Part shown: positions 6,145 to 51,249 of the stretch, piece by piece
Numbering within the stretch: the first letter of the stretch is position 1
How the letters are laid out: every line of letters begins with the position of its first letter
Source of the DNA: Peribolospora baueri
Lineage: Eukaryota
Assembly (NCBI GenBank): GCA_029717555.1
Contig: JAMDHS010000035.1
Coordinates: forward strand, 62,001-126,000
Reading direction: 5' to 3'
Length of the DNA: 64,000 bases
Program-made: the position numbers and the translations under genes
Notes under the pieces: generated by a model
The model's input: the letters and a program-made list of their open reading frames with translations, nothing else
What the model was told of the DNA's origin: nothing
The model's database searches: none

Positions 6145-9149
<3,005 letters not shown>

Positions 9150-25363: not shown

Positions 25364-26176
25364 ATGGGGAGCGTGGCGCATGTCACGAATGCTTACGCGG
25401 CGAGATGGGCGCTCTCCCGGGAGGATGGACGACGGTGGTTGCAAGGATGATGGGGGACGGCGCGAGGTCGAGAGGCCGATCGATCGATTCGTTGGTTCGC
25501 ATTCCGTAATCGGCAGTGATAGCCATTGAACGTGTACACTATGTTAGTTGATTCCTTTTCCTTTACCTTCTCCCGCCTCTGGCCCGGCCCCTTGCTCGCC
25601 CTCCGGCAGCGGCAAGGAACTTATCTTGAGACATCTCCGGATTTGCGGGCCCGTGTGGGTTCGCATTGACCTAATCTGACCATCCGAGCAATGCGTCATC
25701 GCTGTTGCTATCTTGACTTGGTCCCGCCGCACGGTCCACGCGCCGCAGCCGCAAGCCGTCCCGCAACTATGATCAGTTCCACGTAGAATTGGTTTGGGGC
25801 TGTGCTGCGCTGCCGTCTCGAGACGCCCGCGTTGATGACGACTTGAGCGCGACGACGACGACGACCACCACCACCGACAACTCGTCGCCTCGCCTCTTTT
25901 TCAGTTGTGAACCTGCTCCTCAACCTCAGACCGCTCGGTGCTCCCACTTGCTTCTCTCCTCTTCTCTCGCCTGCGACGGCCCGGCTCTGCATCGCGTCGC
26001 CGCCCGTCGCGTGTGTCTCGGTGCCCGCTTCCACGTCGTCGCCTGCGCACGACGACCGACGGGACAGGCCGCGTCAGCGCCCCGCCATCGAACAGCCTTA
26101 GCCTTGCTCCTCCTCGCCGGGCCCTTTTCCCCTTCTTTTCTCCTCACCACCTCCTCCCCTCCACACACCGCCGACC

Positions 26177-26850
26177 ATGGCCTCCATCACGTTCAGAACC
26201 ACCCTCGACCGTCCCCTCCATTACGGTTCCTTCAGCTCCCGCTTGTCCTACTTCCCGGACGTTCCTTCATACTCCGACCTCATCGCCACCGTCCGCGAGC
26301 AATGGCGTCTTGGCAAGTCGACCAAAGTCCGCCTCGCCTGGGTCGACACAGGTGGCGACGAGGTCGCCGTTTCGAATCAGGACGACTTCGACGTCTACAT
26401 CACCATCAATGCAAACAGCTCATACAAAGACCATTCGAGATATCCGCCTCCTAGACTAAGCATCATTTGTGACGATTCTGCCGGCGACAGCGACTCTGCC
26501 ACGTCTTTCTCCACCTCTCGAAGGCCTAAATACTCATCTCCCATGAATGTTTTTTTCAAGACCACCCTCGACCGTCCCTTCAAAAATCGTATATTGAGGA
26601 CCTCTAACGGTCCCTATCAGACCCACATACATGGCTTCTATGCCTTCCCCAGTTACTCCGATCTCGTCGCCATCGTCCGCAAGCGGTGGCGTCTTGACCG
26701 GTCGACCGACTTCCGCTTCGTCTGGGTCGATGAGTTGGGTGACGAGGTCACCCTAGAGAATCAGGCTGACTTCGACATCTACGAGCGGATCGTCAGAAAT
26801 AAACCCATCTCCTCACCGTCCTCAACCTATTTGAGGATTCACGTCATTCA
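26177..26850 (+). repeat. Internal tandem duplication encoding the two PB1-like domains
   Basis: Shared DNA blocks: accaccctcgaccgtccc (26198 and 26561); tactccgacctcatcgccaccgtccgc versus tactccgatctcgtcgccatcgtccgc; tggcgtcttg; gacgaggtc; aatcagg...gacttcgac. Confidence 0.85.
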
Positions 26851-29800
26851 GGACGATCCCGCCGACGCTCCCGCTTCCACGTCCACTCCGTCCACCTCGC
26901 TTCTTCCAGCAGACGGCCTTGGCCATGCCTCCACCGTCTTGGCGGAACCCACCGGTGCCGCTCCCCCTCCCACGACCCTTGGCCTCGCCTCCGCCGTCTT
27001 GGCAAAAGCCGCTGGCCCGCGCCAGGGAGGAGGAAAGGAGAGCGCCGGCGATACTTTGGACATCTCGGCGTCGTGGTGGGACGACGACTTCGGCTCTGCC
27101 AAGTCGTCCTCGACCGTTCAGGAGCCTGTGGATGCGAATACTCCCGTTAGAGCCGCCGAAGTTGACGATCCGCCCGAGGTGTTGCCAGACCCGCCCGCCA
27201 ACGCGGCAGAAGGCTCCCAGCGACCTCGTCCCGGAACAGGCACCGGCATGTCCGGCAGCAGCGGACCGCAGGGACTTGGTAACCTTTTCGAGTCACTCCG
27301 TGGGAACATGGCCCGCGTCCAGGGCACCCTCAGCGACCTTCGGGACAACCTGAGCATCCGTCTCCTCCATCCGGACCCAGCTGGGGAACCGGAGCTATGG
27401 GACTCCGTTGATGCGATTGGAGAAGCGGCTCAAGACATCGTTTCCCAGGCTATCGACGCCTTAGGGTCTGTCAGCGCTGTCGAGGTGGAGATGGCAAGGT
27501 CGCTCTTCACTGATAACAAGGCTCGTTCTTCGCAGACGACGAGCGCGTCTCCTAGCACTCGGCAGGCCCCTTCTTGCTCCGACGTCGCCGACGACCTCGT
27601 CGAAAAGATTGCGCAGGCAGCCTCTGAGGCTTCTTCGGAGGCGGTCAGGAGCTTGTTTGAAAGCTTCCATGACGGCCTTCGTCTGACCGCCCCTTCGAAG
27701 AAGACTGACCCTACCGCTGTGCTTGTGGAGAAACCTGGCCCTAAGGTTGGCGGGACCTCGTTTGGCATCGCCACCGTAGAAGACGGCGAGGATTCCTGCG
27801 ACGGGGCACCCCCTCATAAGGCGCCTAAGACCAAGTCGGCCGAGACGGAGCATATGGAGACGAGGGAGGAAGCTATTCCGGATCGTGAGCCACCGACTGA
27901 CGACCCTTTCCGCTCCGGACGCCATCCCTCGACTCGTCCTCATTATCGCCACCGTCACGGGACTCCCTGGCTCCGCCGTCGTTCCACCACTCATGGGCCT
28001 CCTTTCGGAGGTCTGCGAATGGATTGGGAAAGAGGGCTTCGGCCGATGGGTCGAATGGCGGCGGGGCCATCTTTCCCGTTCCATTCAAGTCTGCACGGTA
28101 CTTGGGGACCTCCTCCGCGGCCCCACACCTTCGTTCCCCCGCCGCCGTGTTCTCCGCCCGCTCCTTCCGCTGCTCCTCCGGCGTCTCATCCTCCCGTCCC
28201 CGTAGCGCCGCCTCCGCCCGGTCCTCCACCTCTTAATTTCCGCTCCAACTTCTCATACGGTGATTTCGCCTGGACCACACCATCTCTGTTCGCGCCGCCT
28301 TTCCCTCGCGACCACTATTCCGTCCCGTCGTTCGACGGTTCCCCGTTCCCTTCCGGGCCGGACAAGCGTGGACCATCGCAGATGGCACCGGCCGAGGAGG
28401 CGGATGGCCCGGTGGACGAACGCCACGACGGGAACGACAGGATGGCCCGGCGCACTAGCGAAGACTCGTCGCTCGGCGGAGGTTATGTCAAGCTGAATGA
28501 CAGAGACGGAGAAGAGCAGGATGAAGATGTCGAGATGGCTATTGAGGGGGACAACCGCCAGTCGCCTCTTAGTAATACCGTCTTCGTCGGAGGCGCTCCC
28601 CTCGACGACGGGGACTCTCCGGCTGCGGAGCGTCTCAAGCAAGTCCGTGAGCAGGCCGAAGCCAACGTGGCTGCTCAGAGGGCGTTTACCGAGTTTGAGC
28701 GTGAAAATCGCCATGGGTCCAGCATGAGCAGGGAAGAAGGCGACCCTTTCAATCCCCTCCAGTTTGGTCGGGGCCGCGGCCACGGCCGCGGTCCCCGGCG
28801 TGGAGGGTGGCGTCGTGGTGGAAGACCCGCCGGAAGGGGCAGGGGCAGTGCTTGGCGTCCCAGACGTTGGAGCTGGGGCGACTTCGGAGGTGGCTTCGGT
28901 GACGAGGAGGAGGAGCATCATTTCTTCGGCACCGGTGCGGATCGGGATGGGGACGAGTCACTCGCGGATGCGGGCCAGCGCAGAGGCAATCCGTTGGCCG
29001 CTTCTCACCGCGGTCCTTCTCACCGCGGCCATCACCCGCAGCGGTATCACAACCACGGGCATGGGCATGGCAATCAGCCTCATAGCTCTGGATTCAAGGC
29101 AGGGGTTGGCCGCGGAGGAGCATTCGGGGACATGGGCGACTGGAGCAGACGCTTCGGCGATACGTTTGGCTTCCTTGGCGGCGACTCTGCTTCCGGAGGA
29201 TTGGGAAGCAGCCGCCATTTCGACCAGTCCGATCCCCTGGCTGGGTTCTTCGATCGCTGGTTCGGTCCTGACGGCGAAAGGGTGGGTAACTGGGGTCAGA
29301 CGAGGTGGAAAGACGAGGCGGCGAGCAGCAGCAGTGACGAGGAGATGAGTCGTGCTATTGGGGGCGACGAGGAGAAGGCTTCCCCTCCTGGATCGTTCCC
29401 CAGTGCTGAGAAGGTGGTCGATGAGTTCAAGGATGACAGCAGTAGGGTCAAGGAGAGAAAGCAGACGGAGGAGATAGACGCCAGTTTGTCGACAATCGCT
29501 CAGTCGCAGCTGGGACGGCCGTCCGACAAGACGCTCCCGCCATTCGATGAATTGAGGGCTGCGGTGCAGGCATCCGTAGACGCTGTCGCCACCACCACCA
29601 CCACCACCGAAGGTCCTGACGCTGTCAAACCGACCGGCGAAGGGAATAGTCACCGCGACGTTCCACAGGACTCCCGCGAGGCGTCCGACCAGTCCGACCA
29701 GCATCACTCGACGGCCGCTCACAGCACGCAGCCAGGCCCGAGCGCTTCCGTGTCCCCCGTCCGCGTTTGGATGGATTCGACGGGCCGCTACAGCTACCTC

Positions 29801-30607
29801 GCCTCCTACGTCCCCTCACGCGCGGCGGAAAATGCGGGTAAAGTGAGGCTCCGCAGGGCGGGAGGCGCCGACGACGCGGCCGATGTGTCGGAGCCGGGCC
29901 TCGGTCAGCGTCACTCGTCGGCTTCGAGCATCGGCGCGGCGCACAAGGGGCTTCTCATCGACGTGCCGCTCGAGAAGCTTTGTTTGGAGGATAGGGAGTG
30001 GGTGAGGAGGCAGAAGGAGGGCAAGGGAACGGAGGAGCAGGTCGCAGCCACGTCGGACGTCCCCGTTGGCGAGCGCCCAGCAGCGGGAACTCGCTACGCC
30101 GCCGCTCAGACGGAGAAGAACGATGACGCTCAGAAAGGCTCGGACGGCACGCAGGGGCACGGGAGTAGGAGGGGTGAAGGAACGGCGCCTTGGGCCCTTT
30201 TCGCCACTCCTACCAGCGCCCACCATTCGAACCGCCCGACGCCTCCTGCGCATTTGTCTCGGCAGGCAGCCTCGGATTACGGCCCGTCGGGTTCGCGAGG
30301 AACGACGACGACGAAGGAGCGACTGATGTCTCGGCTCGTCGAGATGGGCTTTGTCGATAGGCTTGGGGGCACCATCGATGTGGCGAGCGTGGTGTCGCAG
30401 GCGGTAGAGCGCACGAAAGGCAAAGGGAGGGAGAGCGATGGCGGGGTGGAGGAGGAGAGGCTCCTAGGGAGGCTCGTGGAGGAGCTCATGGGCATGGCGG
30501 CCGCGAGGGAGATGGCCGAGGTGTACGGGAGAGTGGGGAAGCAAGGGCCGAGCGTTGGGTATGCGAGGCGCGGCGGGGGTATGCCTGGCGAGTGGTGGCA
30601 TTCGTGA
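26177..30607 (+). CDS. Intronless 1,476 aa protein: two tandem PB1-like domains, long disordered Pro/RGG region, SHD1-like domain, C-terminal UBA-like segment
   Basis: Single long ORF. OPCA-like motifs WVDTGGDEVAVSNQDDF and WVDELGDEVTLENQADF. RVWMDSTGRYSYLASY...GKVRLRR...IDVPLEKLCLEDREWV resembles SLA1 homology domain 1. ERLMSRLVEMGF resembles a UBA MGF loop. Confidence 0.75.
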   Translation: MASITFRTTLDRPLHYGSFSSRLSYFPDVPSYSDLIATVREQWRLGKSTKVRLAWVDTGGDEVAVSNQDDFDVYITINANSSYKDHSRYPPPRLSIICDDSAGDSDSATSFSTSRRPKYSSPMNVFFKTTLDRPFKNRILRTSNGPYQTHIHGFYAFPSYSDLVAIVRKRWRLDRSTDFRFVWVDELGDEVTLENQADFDIYERIVRNKPISSPSSTYLRIHVIQDDPADAPASTSTPSTSLLPADGLGHASTVLAEPTGAAPPPTTLGLASAVLAKAAGPRQGGGKESAGDTLDISASWWDDDFGSAKSSSTVQEPVDANTPVRAAEVDDPPEVLPDPPANAAEGSQRPRPGTGTGMSGSSGPQGLGNLFESLRGNMARVQGTLSDLRDNLSIRLLHPDPAGEPELWDSVDAIGEAAQDIVSQAIDALGSVSAVEVEMARSLFTDNKARSSQTTSASPSTRQAPSCSDVADDLVEKIAQAASEASSEAVRSLFESFHDGLRLTAPSKKTDPTAVLVEKPGPKVGGTSFGIATVEDGEDSCDGAPPHKAPKTKSAETEHMETREEAIPDREPPTDDPFRSGRHPSTRPHYRHRHGTPWLRRRSTTHGPPFGGLRMDWERGLRPMGRMAAGPSFPFHSSLHGTWGPPPRPHTFVPPPPCSPPAPSAAPPASHPPVPVAPPPPGPPPLNFRSNFSYGDFAWTTPSLFAPPFPRDHYSVPSFDGSPFPSGPDKRGPSQMAPAEEADGPVDERHDGNDRMARRTSEDSSLGGGYVKLNDRDGEEQDEDVEMAIEGDNRQSPLSNTVFVGGAPLDDGDSPAAERLKQVREQAEANVAAQRAFTEFERENRHGSSMSREEGDPFNPLQFGRGRGHGRGPRRGGWRRGGRPAGRGRGSAWRPRRWSWGDFGGGFGDEEEEHHFFGTGADRDGDESLADAGQRRGNPLAASHRGPSHRGHHPQRYHNHGHGHGNQPHSSGFKAGVGRGGAFGDMGDWSRRFGDTFGFLGGDSASGGLGSSRHFDQSDPLAGFFDRWFGPDGERVGNWGQTRWKDEAASSSSDEEMSRAIGGDEEKASPPGSFPSAEKVVDEFKDDSSRVKERKQTEEIDASLSTIAQSQLGRPSDKTLPPFDELRAAVQASVDAVATTTTTTEGPDAVKPTGEGNSHRDVPQDSREASDQSDQHHSTAAHSTQPGPSASVSPVRVWMDSTGRYSYLASYVPSRAAENAGKVRLRRAGGADDAADVSEPGLGQRHSSASSIGAAHKGLLIDVPLEKLCLEDREWVRRQKEGKGTEEQVAATSDVPVGERPAAGTRYAAAQTEKNDDAQKGSDGTQGHGSRRGEGTAPWALFATPTSAHHSNRPTPPAHLSRQAASDYGPSGSRGTTTTKERLMSRLVEMGFVDRLGGTIDVASVVSQAVERTKGKGRESDGGVEEERLLGRLVEELMGMAAAREMAEVYGRVGKQGPSVGYARRGGGMPGEWWHS

Positions 30608-41574: not shown

Positions 41575-43225
41575 TCATTGTTGGGTGCCCAGTGATGACG
41601 CCGGCGGCCCTGACGGGTTTGGTACGTTTGCCAGTGGCGACGAGCTCGGGTTTGACCCGCTACCGGGAGAGCCGGAGAGGGAAAATTGACCGCGAATGGG
41701 GGTGGAGACGGACCGACGGAGGGGGCTACCGCTATAGGGGGAAGCGGGGTTAGAGCTGGTCGCAAGAATGGCTCTACGGAGCGGGGAGTCTCCTCCACTT
41801 CCGATCCCCATTGGGGAAGCTTTGCCTTTGCTCTTGTTCGGTACAGTGGGGGAGCTCTTGCTGGGTAGAGAAGGGGTGGCGGTGGAAGCCCTACGCGGTG
41901 TGCCAATGGAGAGATCGGAGGGGAAGTAAGAGGTTGGTCGATCAGGTGGCCTGGGTCGATTCTAACAGGAGGAGGAGGTAGCGAGAAAGGTAGCGGTGAG
42001 AACGTATCCCAAAAGTTTTGACGGAGGCACTCCATTCCTTTTGTCTTGGATGTCCTCCTGGCTCTTTGTTCGCGTCACGAACTCACACTTGGCGACCCCT
42101 TGAAAGACTTCCACTTTTCTCCTAGTGTTGGACCAGGCATCCCGGCAGGCAACCCGCCATTGTCGATCACGGCGCCGGCAGCGTCCGTAGCGTCGACCTT
42201 GGAAGGGAGTCGGGAAAGCTTGAAGATTGCTTCGACAACGTTGAAGAGCAAGATGAGTGTGATGGTGTTTTCTGCTTGTTCCAAGGACATGGATCAGGGA
42301 GCATGGGCACGTAGAGAGATGAGATCAGCGAAAAGAAGAGCAGTGGCACAGCCAGGGCTCCCCAACAAATGTTGAAGCGTGGTCTCACCCAGGTACCATA
42401 TCGACGGCTTGCCGAGGACGTGAGCAGTTATGCGCCGCAGGAAACTAATTAATGAGAGAGCCAAACAGGAAGTGACGATTAAGAAAAGCGCGCCCAGTTT
42501 GACTACCGGAGCCGCGGCTCGTGGTAGAAACCAGTTGACTTTTACGTCTCATCCTTGCCCATTCCCACCTCTACTTACCTATACAAGTCTGTGTATCCCA
42601 GGACGCTCCAGACGACCAGCGCCACAATGTTGGCTCTTATCCTAGTGATTAGCCGGATTCGCCCCTGCGGCGGCGGACGCGTCTTGGTCGTAGTCTTGGT
42701 CTCCGTCCGTTCCTGGTGCGATTCTTGTACCTGTGGGGATCCGACCGAGTTTCTGAAAGGAGAACCGGAAGCGGCGGCGGGAGCTGGAGCGCGAGACGCC
42801 TGCGGAGATCCGAAGGAAGCGTCCATATTTTTAAAAGGAGAGATGGAAGCAGGAGTAGGGCGCTGGTGAGGAAACCTAGTGGGTGTTGCTGGCGCAGGAG
42901 CGGGCTCCGGTGCTGCAGCAACGGCGTCGGCGGAGGGCGAGGGCGAGCCCATATCCTTGAAAGGGTTCCGAAGCGCGGACGGAGGTGTCCAGGCAGATCC
43001 TCCAGGACTGAAGCTGTCGTGGTGATGAGGTTGATGGATAGGCGTCGCGTACAGTGCTGGACTTGCCGTTTTGTCATCTACAAACCGCACGTTTCGAGCA
43101 GAGGATGGGGAAGGCTGAGCGACCGAGTCGGATTGAATGAGGTCATGTGTGCGACGACGACGCTCGAGCGGCGAGGGTGTCTCTGGCAGGCCTGCAAAGG
43201 ACGTGTCGGCCATCGTGTGCGCCAT
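41575..43225 (-). CDS. Two-TM, S/P-rich protein, possibly a Pom34/TMEM209-like nuclear pore membrane protein; about 4 exons
   Basis: Spliced core RIRANIVALVVWSVLGYTDLYSFLRRITAHVLGKPSIWYLENTITLILLFNVVEAIFKLSRL is flanked by SP/TP-rich regions, and exon phases are consistent. Family assignment is by resemblance only; the 3' end is uncertain. Confidence 0.5.
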
Positions 43226-43264
43226 AGCGTCGGGGTGTATAGACACGTCGTACGTGTCTTGACC

Positions 43265-43336
43265 CTTGAGGACAAAGGTGTCGAGGACAAAGGCCTTGAG
43301 GGCAAGGGCTTGAGGACAAGGGCTTGAGGACAAAGG
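43265..43336. repeat. 14-bp tandem minisatellite (CTTGAGGACAA(A/G)GG) x5
   Basis: cttgaggacaaagg / tcgaggacaaagg / cttgagggcaaggg / cttgaggacaaggg / cttgaggacaaagg, in the divergent promoter. Confidence 0.85.
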
Positions 43337-43389
43337 TGGACGAAGTGAGCACGCGTTAGGGCCGCTGCCGTGGATCTTCGAGAGATGAG

Positions 43390-43579
43390 CACGTGATCTG
43401 CACGTGCCAACCCCTCGAGTGGCTCTGTCAGCTGTGACCGCCGCCGCAGCCGGCCCGGGCCACGCGAGGCGGCCTTCCACGTCGACACCATCGCCCTCCA
43501 CGTCGACGTCGACTGCACATTTAAGGGGCAACGAGAGGGACTCGTCGGGACGTCCAAGTGTGCCTCACCTTCCACGTCC
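43390..43579 (+). promoter_or_regulatory. UPRE-like/ACGT-core cluster upstream of the bZIP gene
   Basis: CTTCCACGTCG (43474), CCTCCACGTCG (43495) and CTTCCACGTCC (43569), plus CACGTG at 43390 and 43401. Confidence 0.5.
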
Positions 43580-43729
43580 ACCTCATCGACCATCATGACC
43601 TGACATTGTCTCTTCTTGTCTCTTTCTTCTCCTTCATTCGCTCTCTACTTGAAACTTACACACATTCCTCCCCTTCAGTCCAGCCTCACTCTGACCCTCT
43701 CGCATATCTACTCCTCCATCCTCCTTATC

Positions 43730-45468
43730 ATGGACCAAGAAAACGACAAGACGATCAACCCGGCCACCCTCTTGATGGGTCAAGAGGAATCCGCCTCCTC
43801 TACCCCCCTTCCCTCCGCCGCGCCGTCCCCGGCGTCCTCCGCCTCTCCTCATCCCACCACCCCCGTCGCTAGACCTTCGCGAAGACCTAACAGCCCTCTC
43901 AAGCGCAAGGCCTCGGACGATGACGAGCAAGAGTCGACCACGTCGTCGAAAGGCAAAGGCAAGGCCAAGGCTCCCCTCTCCCAGATGGATCCCGCTCGCC
44001 GCGCGCGCCTCCTGGCTCGCCAAGAGCGCAACCGGCAAGCCGCACAGCGGTCGCGGAACGCGCGCAAGGCCTACTTGACGGACTTGGAGGAGAAGACTTG
44101 CGCTCTGGAGAAAGAGAACGATGACTTGCGAGGAGCGATCGCCAGGGGAGAGATGGAGAGGGCAAGTATGAACCGCGAGTTGGGCGAGACCAAGAGCCGA
44201 ATGGAAGGCCTCGAAGGGCTCCTCCGGACATTCCTCGCCGAGAGGCATTGTCTCTCGGTTGAAGCGCCGACCGCCTCTCCACATCGTCCGCCCACCCCCT
44301 CTTCGGACTCTTCATCTTCCTCTACCGTCTTTACCCTCCCACCCTTCCATCCGGTTTCCGCCCCTCTCCTCAGCCCTGCTCCGCCGCCCAGCATGATGGG
44401 GACACCGCCCTTCTTGGCCCTGCCGTCACACTCGTCTTCCATGCCTTTCGCCACCGTCACTCCTTCTCCGTTGATGTCTGCCGTACCCTCGCCTTCTTCT
44501 GCCTCTCTGTCGACTCCAGCAACATCGGCGACTCCGATCCAAGGCACGGACGACCGCACTCGCGTCTCAGCACGGGACGCGACCGTCCCCTCATTGTCAG
44601 CTCCTTCCCGCTCTCTCTTCTCTCCTCAGGAAGAGATGGACGCGGAGGTCGAGCGGGGGACGGCCCTGCAGCGGGTGCCTCTTCGTCTGGCGGTGCAGGA
44701 TCTAGGGCCGAGTCTGCTTCGACAGCAGCGGTCACGGAGGCAGTTGGACTGCGGTCGACGGCGAGCGGCGATGTCGTTTACGGCTTCAACTTCGGCGAAT
44801 TGCTCGATTTGCCCATCGTCCCTCTTCTCCACGGCTGCAACGAGCAAGATGGCGCCGGCCGTGTACCCGGCCAAAGGGAAGAACGCCGTGACGATGACGC
44901 CAGATCTCCGTTCCCGCCGTTCCCGCAGGTTCACCTTTCGGCTACGGCTCAGGCTGCCCAAGAGGCTTTTGAGGGCTTGCTGATGGGTCCCGTCATCGGC
45001 GACGGTCCAGGCGAGGGAAACGGAACTCGGCCGCCGCCGCAGGGGCAAGGTCCGGAGCAGCGGCGAGAACAAGAGGAGGACCAGGTTCGGAGTCAGAACC
45101 GGAACGAAGGTCAGGGATTTGGGACAGGTGGCGATGGCGACAGAGGCGGGGAGACGACGGTCACGATGGGCCCACGCGCCGACGTCACTGAGAACGACGG
45201 CGTCCTGGCGACGCTGAACGCCCCGCTCCCGTTGGCGACGACGACGATAACGACGGGGACGAATGGCCTATTCAATCTCGACCTCGACTTCACCATGGAC
45301 GTCGAGCTGCCGCTCCTCTGCTCCCCAGCCGACGAGGACGAGACGACGGCGGCGCTCTTCACCGCCTTCATCGACGCACCTCACGGCCAGGCGGAGCAGG
45401 ACGGAAAGGGCAAAGCGACGGACGCTTTTAGCGAATCGGTGCTCAGGGAGACCGTCGAGGCGGCCTGA
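43730..45468 (+). CDS. bZIP UPR transcription factor (Hac1/Hxl1/Cib1/XBP1-type). Unspliced form 417 aa (stop 44983); Ire1-spliced form 546 aa (stop 45468)
   Basis: Basic region and zipper RARLLARQERNRQAAQRSRNARKAYLTDLEEKTCALEKENDDLRGAI. Removing 44571-44668 puts it in frame with the acidic ORF ending at 45468. Confidence 0.85.
44571..44668 (+). other. Predicted unconventional (Ire1-cleaved) 98-nt intron within a bifurcated stem-loop
   Basis: 5' hairpin cgcgtct[CAG|CACG]ggacgcg; 3' hairpin cc[CTG|CAGC]gg. Internal stems ccgtcccc/ggggacgg and tctcttc/gaagaga; exon-exon stem gcac/gtgc. No GT-AG ends, and excision shifts the frame. Confidence 0.8.
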
Positions 45469-46347
45469 TCTCGGCCACCTCTGTTTTCATTCCTCGAGCT
45501 CGAAGGGTTTCGTTTCCTTTCCTTCACTCCCCCCACTCTCTTCATTCCCTCTCTTCCTCCAAGGCCCCTGCTTCCCTTGTTCACCTCTTCTCGACGTCGT
45601 CAAGACATTGCGCGAGTTGCTGATCGCACCCGTTGAGTGTTGATCGCCTCGAGGGATGCACATGGTGACGCTGAGAGATGGTGGATGGGGGCGCGGGATG
45701 CGGAGGGGGATGGGATGTGGGTGGTGGGTGGGGCTGAGGGCTGGAACGCTCACACCGAACGAGCCGAGATCGGCCGGCGCGCACCGCACCGGTGTTCATT
45801 CATTCGCCCGTCCGTCGTCCATCGTGCCCATGTCTTGTCGTTTACATCCCTGTGTCCCGTCTATCGTGTCTCTCTCCATCGATCCTTCCTACTTATAGTC
45901 CCGCTCTTGTCCAGTCCGTCCCGTCGATTCCTCTTCCCTCCTCACAGGACACTTTGCCTGGTGACATGTAATGGCTGTTCGATAGCGCCGGTCGATTGTC
46001 GGACAATGTAATCGAGACCGGTTACTATATGTTGTTGGCCAGCGTTTTCTAGCGGCGAGAAAGTGAAAGCACAACGCGACCGACGGGCGTCGTGGGAAGA
46101 CGGGCGAGGCTGCGGCAGGGCCGATCATCCGCGTCTTCTTCGGACCATTTCGCTCGGCCGACGAGAACGACGGACGACGAAGGTCTACCTGCCTCTTTCG
46201 CCTCGCTTGATCGTCTTCTTCGTTCGAACTTTGGCTCCTCCTCGCTCCCTCTCACCCTCCTAGAGCTTCCTCTCCGTACGGCCATCCCGCTCCGCCGCGC
46301 CTGTCGCACCGAAACCGCCGCGTCCGTAGCTCGCTCGCTCGTTCGAT

Positions 46348-49544: not shown

Positions 49545-51249
49545 ATGGGGTTCCAAATCGTCAACCCGTATGCGCTCGCAGCGCTCTCCACCATCGGGTT
49601 CGTAGCCCTCGCTCGCCATCACCAACGCAGACCAGACCGCATGCTCACCTCACCCTCTCTCCCCCCACAGAGGCATGCTCTTCGGTTTCGACGTAGCCTC
49701 CATGTCCGCCATCATCGCCTCCCCCAACTACCTCCAATACTTCGGTCATTCCCCCTCCGGCCCCTCAAGCTCCGTCCAGGGTGGCATCACCGCCAGCATG
49801 GCCGGCGGCTCCTGGGTCGGCGCCCTCGTCTCCGGCATCCTCTCCGACTGGATCGGCCGTAGGCCCGCCATCCAGATCTCCTGCGTCATCTGGATCATCG
49901 GCTCGATCATCGTCTGCGCCTCCCAGAACATCGGCATGCTCGTCGTCGGTCGCTTCATCAACGGCCTCACCGTCGGCATCGCCTCCGCTCAGGTCCCCGT
50001 CTACCTCTCCGAACTCGCCCCCTCCAAGCTCCGCGGCCGTCTCGTCGGCGCCCAGCAGTGGGCCATCACCTGGGGCATCCTCATCTTCTACTACGTCTCC
50101 TACGGCTGCTCCTTCATCACGCCCAACGACGGCACCGGCACCGCCAGCTTCCGCGTCCCCTGGGGCCTCCAGATGATCCCCGGCATCATCCTCCTCTTCG
50201 CCCTCTTCTTCATGCCCCGCTCCCCGCGTTGGCTCGCAAAGAAGGGCCGCTGGGAGGAGTGTCTCGCCGTCCTCGCCGTCGTCCACGGCAAAGGCGACGT
50301 CGACAACCCTTTCGTTCAGGCCGAGTTTAAGGAGATTCAGATCGCCATCGAGGAAGAGTCCAAAGACGGCTCCGGCTGGATCGACCTCGTCAACACGCCC
50401 AACATGCTCAACCGCCTCCACATCGGCGTCTTCACCCAGATCTGGTCCCAGATGACCGGCATGAACGTCATGATGTATTACATTACCTACGTCTTTGAGA
50501 TGGCCGGCCTTACCGGCAACATCAACGTTGTCTCCTCCTCCATCCAGTACGTCATCAACGTCGTCATGACCGTCCCCGCCCTCCTCTGGGTCGACAAGTG
50601 GGGCCGTCGTCCCACCCTCCTCGTCGGTTCCACGTTCATGATGATCTGGCTCTTCACCGTCGCCGGTCTCATGGCCGCCCACGGCCACTACGCCCCCGCC
50701 GGCACGCTCCCCAACCAGCCCGACGCGGTCCGCTGGTCCGTCCACGGCACTGCGTCCAAGGGCATCATCGCCTGCTCTTTCCTCTTTGTTGCCTCCTTCG
50801 CTCCCACCTGGGGTCCCGTCTCGTGGATCTACCCGCCGGAGCTCTACCCGACCCGCATCCGCGGCAAGGCCGTCGCGGTGACCACGTCAGCCAACTGGAT
50901 CTTCAACTTTGCCCTCGGCTATTTCGTTCCGCCTTCGTTCCACAACATCCAGTGGCGCTCCTACCTCATTTTCGGTTGCTTCTGCTTCGCCATGACCGTC
51001 CACGTCTTTTTCTGCTTCCCAGAGACAAAGGGAAAGACGTTGGAGGAGATTGAAGAGTTCTTTGCTCTCGGTGTTCCCGCTTGGAAGACGCGCGGCTTGA
51101 CGAAGGAGAGCGAGCTCGATAAGATTGCTGCCGATATTGCGCGCGGGGACGCCGCGGCCGCTGAGAGGCACTTTGCGGCTCGGAGGGGCGGCGCTGCCGC
51201 CGCTGGCGGTGTGGAGAAGCAGCAGGAGGAGAAGCTGGAGCAGGCCTAG
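49545..51249 (+). CDS. Sugar porter (MFS), high-affinity glucose transporter Hgt1-like; 2 exons (intron 49598-49670)
   Basis: STIG|GMLFGFDVASMS, SDWIGRR, VYLSELAPSKLRGRLV, QQWAITWGI, PRSPRWL, QMTGMNVMMYY, DKWGRR, WGPVSWIYPPE and PETKGKTLEE. Strong C-ending codon bias. Confidence 0.96.

Follow-up and report, generated by a model that had tools for sequence, protein, structure and literature searches.

A predicted Ire1-type intron with a variant 5' splice site in a HAC1/XBP1-type bZIP gene of Peribolospora baueri

The forward strand of the stretch of Peribolospora baueri DNA analysed here (64 kb, referred to below as the window) carries a bZIP gene in which removal of a predicted unconventional intron would join two overlapping reading frames. 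The features of the locus, with the evidence on which each is based, are the following.

43474..43578, + strand: three UPRE-like sites, with CTTCCACGTC at 43474 and 43569 and a one-mismatch copy at 43495 (motif search)
43730..44983, + strand: unspliced open reading frame of 417 aa with a basic C-terminal tail (ORF translation)
44000..44173, + strand: bZIP domain, residues 91-148 (Pfam PF00170, E 1.3e-7, above the cut-off)
44556..44561, + strand: 5' arm of the exon-exon zipper, pairing with 44673-44678 (fold, orthologue alignment)
44562..44580, + strand: 5' splice-site hairpin with the loop CAG|CACG, the cut being predicted 3' of G44570 (fold, covariance model)
44571..44668, + strand: predicted unconventional intron of 98 nt (3n+2) whose sequence folds back into a long hairpin (predicted cuts, fold)
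44664..44674, + strand: 3' splice site with the loop CTG|CAGC closed by 2 bp, the cut being predicted 3' of G44668 (sequence, fold)
44669..45468, + strand: second exon frame, which would give the spliced protein an acidic activation domain (translation)
44673..44678, + strand: 3' arm of the exon-exon zipper (fold, orthologue alignment)

When the 98 nt from 44571 to 44668 are taken out on paper, a single open frame of 546 aa is obtained, which ends at the stop at 45468 as the initial annotation of this DNA had claimed. The acidic frame had been placed there at 44800-45468; its end was correct, but not its start, as the open stretch of this frame reaches back to 44263 and the first ATG in it is at position 44983. 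On paper, the excision swaps a basic tail of 136 aa (26 K/R, 9 D/E) for an acidic putative activation tail of 265 aa (43 D/E, 17 K/R). Between 44983 and 45465 the spliced frame contains no stop and its synonymous-codon fit is better than that of the unspliced frame, these two frames being the ones compared. The spliced tail was also the more acidic of the two in all 74 orthologue loci scored, which came from the best 80 of 143 loci. Comparison of the spliced acidic tail of P. baueri with two Ustilaginomycotina tails gave no significant similarity (best E 0.83 and 0.15). The ends of the excised segment are neither GT-AG nor GC-AG in any of its four equivalent placements.

A profile search found 402 relatives of this protein, of which 120 were listed, most of the profile's own sequences being among these 120. 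The best bZIP relatives among the matches listed were Ustilaginomycotina bZIPs and Agaricomycete proteins named 'X-box binding protein 1', whereas two single-sequence homologue searches gave no match; neither of the P. baueri ORFs had an exact-sequence match in the protein collection. Atlas, when run on the whole protein, named Hac1-like clusters with a recognition value below its threshold, and it assigned nothing to the unspliced C-terminal part. In a tree of 42 bZIP domain rows, from which five rows had been dropped, P. baueri grouped neither with the named Ustilaginomycotina nor with the named Agaricomycetes; it was placed on a long branch, without firm support. The row nearest to it was an unnamed protein (P0005) that is also its closest match across the 5' site (Ser-Ala-Arg), and the spacing of the motifs in this protein implies an intron of 56 nt, the length reported for Cryptococcus HXL1. 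The bZIP homology, together with the orthologue elements described below, backs the earlier identification of the gene as the HAC1/XBP1-type UPR regulator of this species, and sequence comparison supports its assignment to the basidiomycete HAC1/XBP1 group of bZIPs that includes Cib1 and Hxl1.

We then examined the RNA element. The stem CGCGTCT with GGACGCG, which encloses CAGCACG (44568-44574), and the self-pairing of the intron, CCGTCCCC with GGGGACGG and TCTCTTC with GAAGAGA, were found at the positions reported previously, and the predicted fold of the 151-nt region (-72.2 kcal/mol, z = -2.96) was equalled by 2 of 200 shuffled sequences. The two loops had to be redrawn. The letters of the 5' loop were right, but its size of 7 nt was not, as C44568 is predicted to pair with G44574 in about 98% of the ensemble, which leaves a loop of 5 nt (AG|CAC). 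The letters of the 3' loop, CTGCAGC (44666-44672), also stood, but the stem of this loop is just 2 bp long and the conformer that contains it, the four-way conformer drawn originally, lies 2.0 kcal/mol above the minimum. The predicted cost of opening both 7-nt loops is 5.1 kcal/mol. The exon-exon pairing that had been described as GCAC with GTGC is present and larger than claimed, extending over 6 bp (44556-44561 with 44673-44678) in the minimum-energy fold, and this exon stem gains two more predicted pairs once the P. baueri message is spliced. On both strands of the 64 kb, the CAG|CACG site is the sole YNG|CACG hairpin with at least six closing pairs, and the 3' site CTG|CAGC satisfies the canonical Ire1 rule CNG|CNGN. 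A search of Rfam (release 15), to whose Hac1/Xbp1 intron models the initial annotation had pointed, gave no relevant match; the five matches obtained belonged to unrelated families (best E 0.22), and all of them were far under the gathering score.

Orthologue loci were collected by a scan of metagenomes with the Agaricomycete alignment as query, which confirmed 143 loci, many of them near-copies, and covered Agaricomycete-type genes rather than DNA of Ustilaginomycotina or of P. baueri's own lineage. Among the best 80 of these 143 loci, 75 carried the unspliced element, two were joined, and three ended before or within the element; 74 of the 75 were recognised by a pattern in which the stem arms were fixed and the seven loop letters were free, and the remaining one was L021. 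The introns of the 51 distinct elements from these best 80 loci were 32-50 nt long, all of them 3n+2, and the 3' loop was CNG|CAGC in 50 of the 51. In two genomic loci (L074 and L079) the spliced frame ended fewer than 50 residues downstream of the element, and a conventional intron located after the unconventional one probably explains these early stops.

In the consensus of 30 orthologue elements, the exons pair in a zipper of 6 bp, the 5' hairpin has a stem of 7 bp and a loop of 5 nt, and the intron forms a stem; double changes were seen at 9 of the 21 pairs. A covariance model built from these 30 elements, with the P. baueri sequence left out, ranked 44562-44672 first in the 64 kb, with 26.5 bits and a rough E of 4e-4 (runner-up E 0.43), and recovered 8 of 8 held-out unspliced orthologue loci. 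Covariation, for which the initial annotation had proposed to search, was seen when P. baueri was compared with 13 loci: 97.6% of the cells pair, compared to 38-50% in slid controls, and 13 of the 21 pairs change on both sides, these counts (14 hand-picked rows, structure from the consensus of related loci) being biased towards that structure. P. baueri contributed such a change once in the zipper and twice in the 5' stem, in each case compensatory with respect to the orthologue stem; in the 5' zipper arm, it has G-C at a position where the orthologues have C-G. At the protein level, all 29 of the Agaricomycete-type proteins aligned had the same residues over both sites, the mean column identity being 32%, and in the unspliced frame the peptides over both sites were conserved amid otherwise unalignable, low-complexity sequence.

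On the basis of these sequence comparisons, we consider it very probable that the element is a genuine Ire1-type intron within a basidiomycete UPR regulator, whose splicing in P. baueri we infer from that of its relatives. The compensatory nature of the differences in the zipper and in the 5' stem, the 3n+2 length and the open, acidic downstream frame argue against an intron that would be of this type by descent yet degenerate, or cleaved chiefly to degrade the message so that few transcripts are spliced productively. Such a reading would agree with the length of the intron, roughly double that of the orthologue introns, with a 3' stem of 2 bp and with the long branch of the bZIP; we nonetheless hold it to be extremely unlikely.

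The join itself was observed in two of the 77 orthologue loci that span the site (best 80 of 143). Comparison of contigs L031 and L011 showed that they are identical at 1350 of 1357 positions, apart from 44 nt between the loops that L031 lacks, and comparison of L055 with L037 showed a gap of 50 nt at the same place. The L031/L011 gap has four equivalent placements, none of which has GT-AG or GC-AG ends. We infer that L031 and L055, for which the library type is not given, are spliced transcripts. These joins also bear on whether an ordinary spliceosomal intron, using for example the pyrimidine tract and the CAG at 44627-44629, could lead to the acidic frame while the hairpins are incidental. 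Such a route would leave unexplained the invariant loops, the stems that covary across basidiomycetes and the non-GT-AG joins of L031 and L055. A pyrimidine run does end in a CAG at 44629, but this run belongs to the stem of the intron itself, of which it forms one arm; frame-compatible candidates are found at 44286-44629, 44286-44671, 44596-44705 and, with a GC donor, at 44671-44705, but each of the four candidate donors deviates at one position from the consensus used for scoring. Some public gene models do pass from the 5' peptide to the acidic frame, and among the 120 relatives listed, 11 have the 5' motif only. Taken together, a spliceosomal origin seems to us very unlikely, and the CAG at 44627-44629 was rejected as the main acceptor.

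We also weighed whether an enzyme different from Ire1 removes the segment, or whether the joined contigs arose at a short repeat as artefacts of assembly or of reverse transcription. The gap is flanked by a 3-base repeat (GCA), which gives rise to its four equivalent placements, but it is found at the same site in two different species; the 5' loop does not follow the rule for yeast Ire1 (PMC8104961), but the 3' loop is that of a classical Ire1 site and Ire1 dependence has been published for Cryptococcus HXL1 (PMC3154848). We regard this explanation as exceedingly improbable.

The Ire1 splicing mechanism itself is well known and has been demonstrated in two basidiomycetes; what may be new about the element is its 5' splice site. 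With a cytosine at +3, the CAG|CACG site of P. baueri fails the canonical CNG|CNGN rule. The Ire1 of Saccharomyces cerevisiae is reported to need a 7-nt loop of the form CNG|(C/A)NGN. A relaxed Ire1 mutant still depends on CNG|NNGN in hairpins derived from HAC1, and G|C is all that it needs on another substrate (PMC8104961; PMC6037481). The mammalian consensus is given as CNG|CAGN (PMC8674358). The +3 cytosine had thus been noted correctly as non-consensus in the initial annotation; however, it is not special to P. baueri. None of the 51 distinct orthologue elements from the best 80 of 143 loci had a guanine at +3 (50 had a cytosine and one an adenine), which rules out a peculiarity of P. baueri alone and makes the cytosine standard in Agaricomycete-type orthologues. 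A guanine was present at +4 in 51 of the 51, and the base at -3 was always a pyrimidine, U in 43 of them. The 5' loops of these elements were UAG|CACG (35), CAG|CACG (6), UGG|CACG (5), CCG|CACG (2) and three others found once each. Two contigs (L031 and L055) show the join made at the site with the +3 cytosine. Departures from the loop consensus were noted at L070:440-510, with a T at -1, and at L057:591-664, with an A at +3; these may be errors, alleles or tolerated variants.

Fold predictions indicate that the YNG|CACG loop is probably 5 nt long and closed by a Y-G pair between -3 and +4, and the simplest reading is that the conserved guanine was shifted from +3 to +4, where it pairs with the pyrimidine at -3. 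We tentatively propose, with slightly less than even confidence, that YNG|CACG may be an undescribed second class of Ire1 site with a 5-nt, Y-G-closed loop, fixed in mushroom-forming fungi and in P. baueri, which is more distant from them. A literature search, which took in few of the subscription papers and did not include the HXL1 border figure, found no description of the Agaricomycete intron or of the CACG loop. The D992/K1059 interface of Ire1 is reported in Coprinopsis, Laccaria and Schizophyllum, also in Ustilago, Puccinia and Cryptococcus, and its pattern is common to 175 of 230 Ire1 orthologues (PMC8104961). We set aside this relaxed interface as the cause of the variant site, which it permits but does not explain, since Ustilago and most orthologues have it too. 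The +3 guanine that is held essential for yeast Ire1 is replaced throughout a large fungal class, and the joining at this site still appears to be precise. YNG|CACG offers a natural substrate for how Ire1 reads loop shape, which has so far been studied with mutants, and if the proposed class is true, the Ire1 of mushroom-forming fungi and of P. baueri must cut loops of two different shapes within one mRNA.

The same difference is visible in the proteins. By pattern, 69 of the 120 listed relatives had both splice-site motifs in one frame, 11 had the first only and 40 had neither. In 41 of these 69, an arginine follows the alanine of the cut site, which implies a C or an A at +3, and the named members are Agaricomycetes; in the other 28, an alanine or a valine is found at this place, which implies the canonical +3 G, and the named members are Ustilaginomycotina. 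Seven of the 28 imply an intron of 65 nt, matching that of U. maydis cib1. Several public models keep the 5' motif and then enter the acidic frame by another route, which fits the warning in the initial annotation that gene finders would mis-model this gene. In a genome paper on Pycnoporus, it is stated that no Hac1/XBP1 orthologue was identifiable (PMC4101180). The element would mark the master switch of the Agaricomycete UPR, missed by at least one genome paper and often misjoined in gene models, and it would show annotators and fungal biotechnologists where the active regulator is encoded.

In this family, Ire1 is described as cutting 3' of a G in two loops, after which the exons are joined by tRNA ligase (PMC4891664; PMC3956513), the intron being ejected by the pairing of the exons (PMC4687415). 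Under ER stress, the Ire1 of P. baueri would cut 3' of G44570 and of G44668, and the self-folded 98-nt intron would leave while the paired exons keep the ends together until these are joined by tRNA ligase (Trl1 in fungi). The bZIP would gain the acidic activation tail and would then bind CCACGTC-type (Cib1-type) elements, and the spliced activator would probably induce its own gene.

Comparison with Ustilago maydis cib1, which has an Ire1 intron of 65 nt (PMC8071499), showed that both genes encode a basidiomycete bZIP, agree in the codon register of the two sites and carry a Cib1-type UPRE upstream; the closest named bZIP relatives of the P. baueri gene belong to Ustilaginomycotina, the group of Ustilago. 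However, the Ustilaginomycotina-type peptides (Pro-Ala-Ala/Val) imply, from protein only, a G at +3, whereas P. baueri has a +3 C and an intron of 98 nt. Cryptococcus neoformans HXL1 loses 56 nt in an Ire1-dependent manner, and it resembles the P. baueri gene in being a divergent basidiomycete bZIP with a 3n+2 intron and stem-loops at both borders (PMC3154848); no Cryptococcus-named protein was present among the 120 relatives listed of the 402. The Agaricomycete proteins that are automatically labelled 'X-box-binding protein 1' have a near-identical element, with a YNG|CACG 5' loop, a canonical 3' loop and a 6-bp zipper, but their introns are 32-50 nt long, the base at -3 is mostly U and their bZIP is about 40% identical to that of P. 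baueri. Metazoan XBP1 and yeast HAC1 share with the P. baueri gene the two G|C cuts in hairpin loops, the switch to the frame of an activation domain and an exon-exon stem reported to extend after splicing (PMC4687415). Their sites are reported to obey CNG|CNGN in 7-nt loops, which the P. baueri 5' site does not, and unlike them the P. baueri intron builds a long stem of its own. The yeast 3'-UTR targeting word UGGCGCG was absent from 43200-46100.

The UPRE-like sites are located 150-260 nt upstream of the start codon, and two of the four exact CTTCCACGTC matches in the 64 kb are upstream of this gene. CTTCCACGTC is the reverse complement of the motif T/CGACGTGGAAG reported from Cib1 ChIP (PMC6490947). 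Its 7-base core was found upstream of 17 of 33 orthologue loci, with 28 sites compared to 2.8 expected from a crude base shuffle, the loci being related to one another. This upstream cluster suggests candidate positive autoregulation.

Further CACGTG words are present at about 43390 and 43401, and a short tandem repeat with a TGAGGACAAAGG-like unit extends over 43271-43336, upstream of the promoter sites. Another exact CTTCCACGTC is located at 26028-26037. A frame of 1501 codons that encodes PB1 domains (26102-30604) has its first ATG about 140 nt downstream of this site and is a possible UPR target. Elsewhere in the window, a spermidine synthase frame followed in tandem by saccharopine dehydrogenase frames at 6758-8425 is consistent with the SPE3-LYS9 fusion typical of Basidiomycota and, together with the basidiomycete identity of the nearest bZIPs, suggests a basidiomycete origin for this DNA, and a long uninterrupted sugar-transporter frame (PF00083) is found at 49606-51246.
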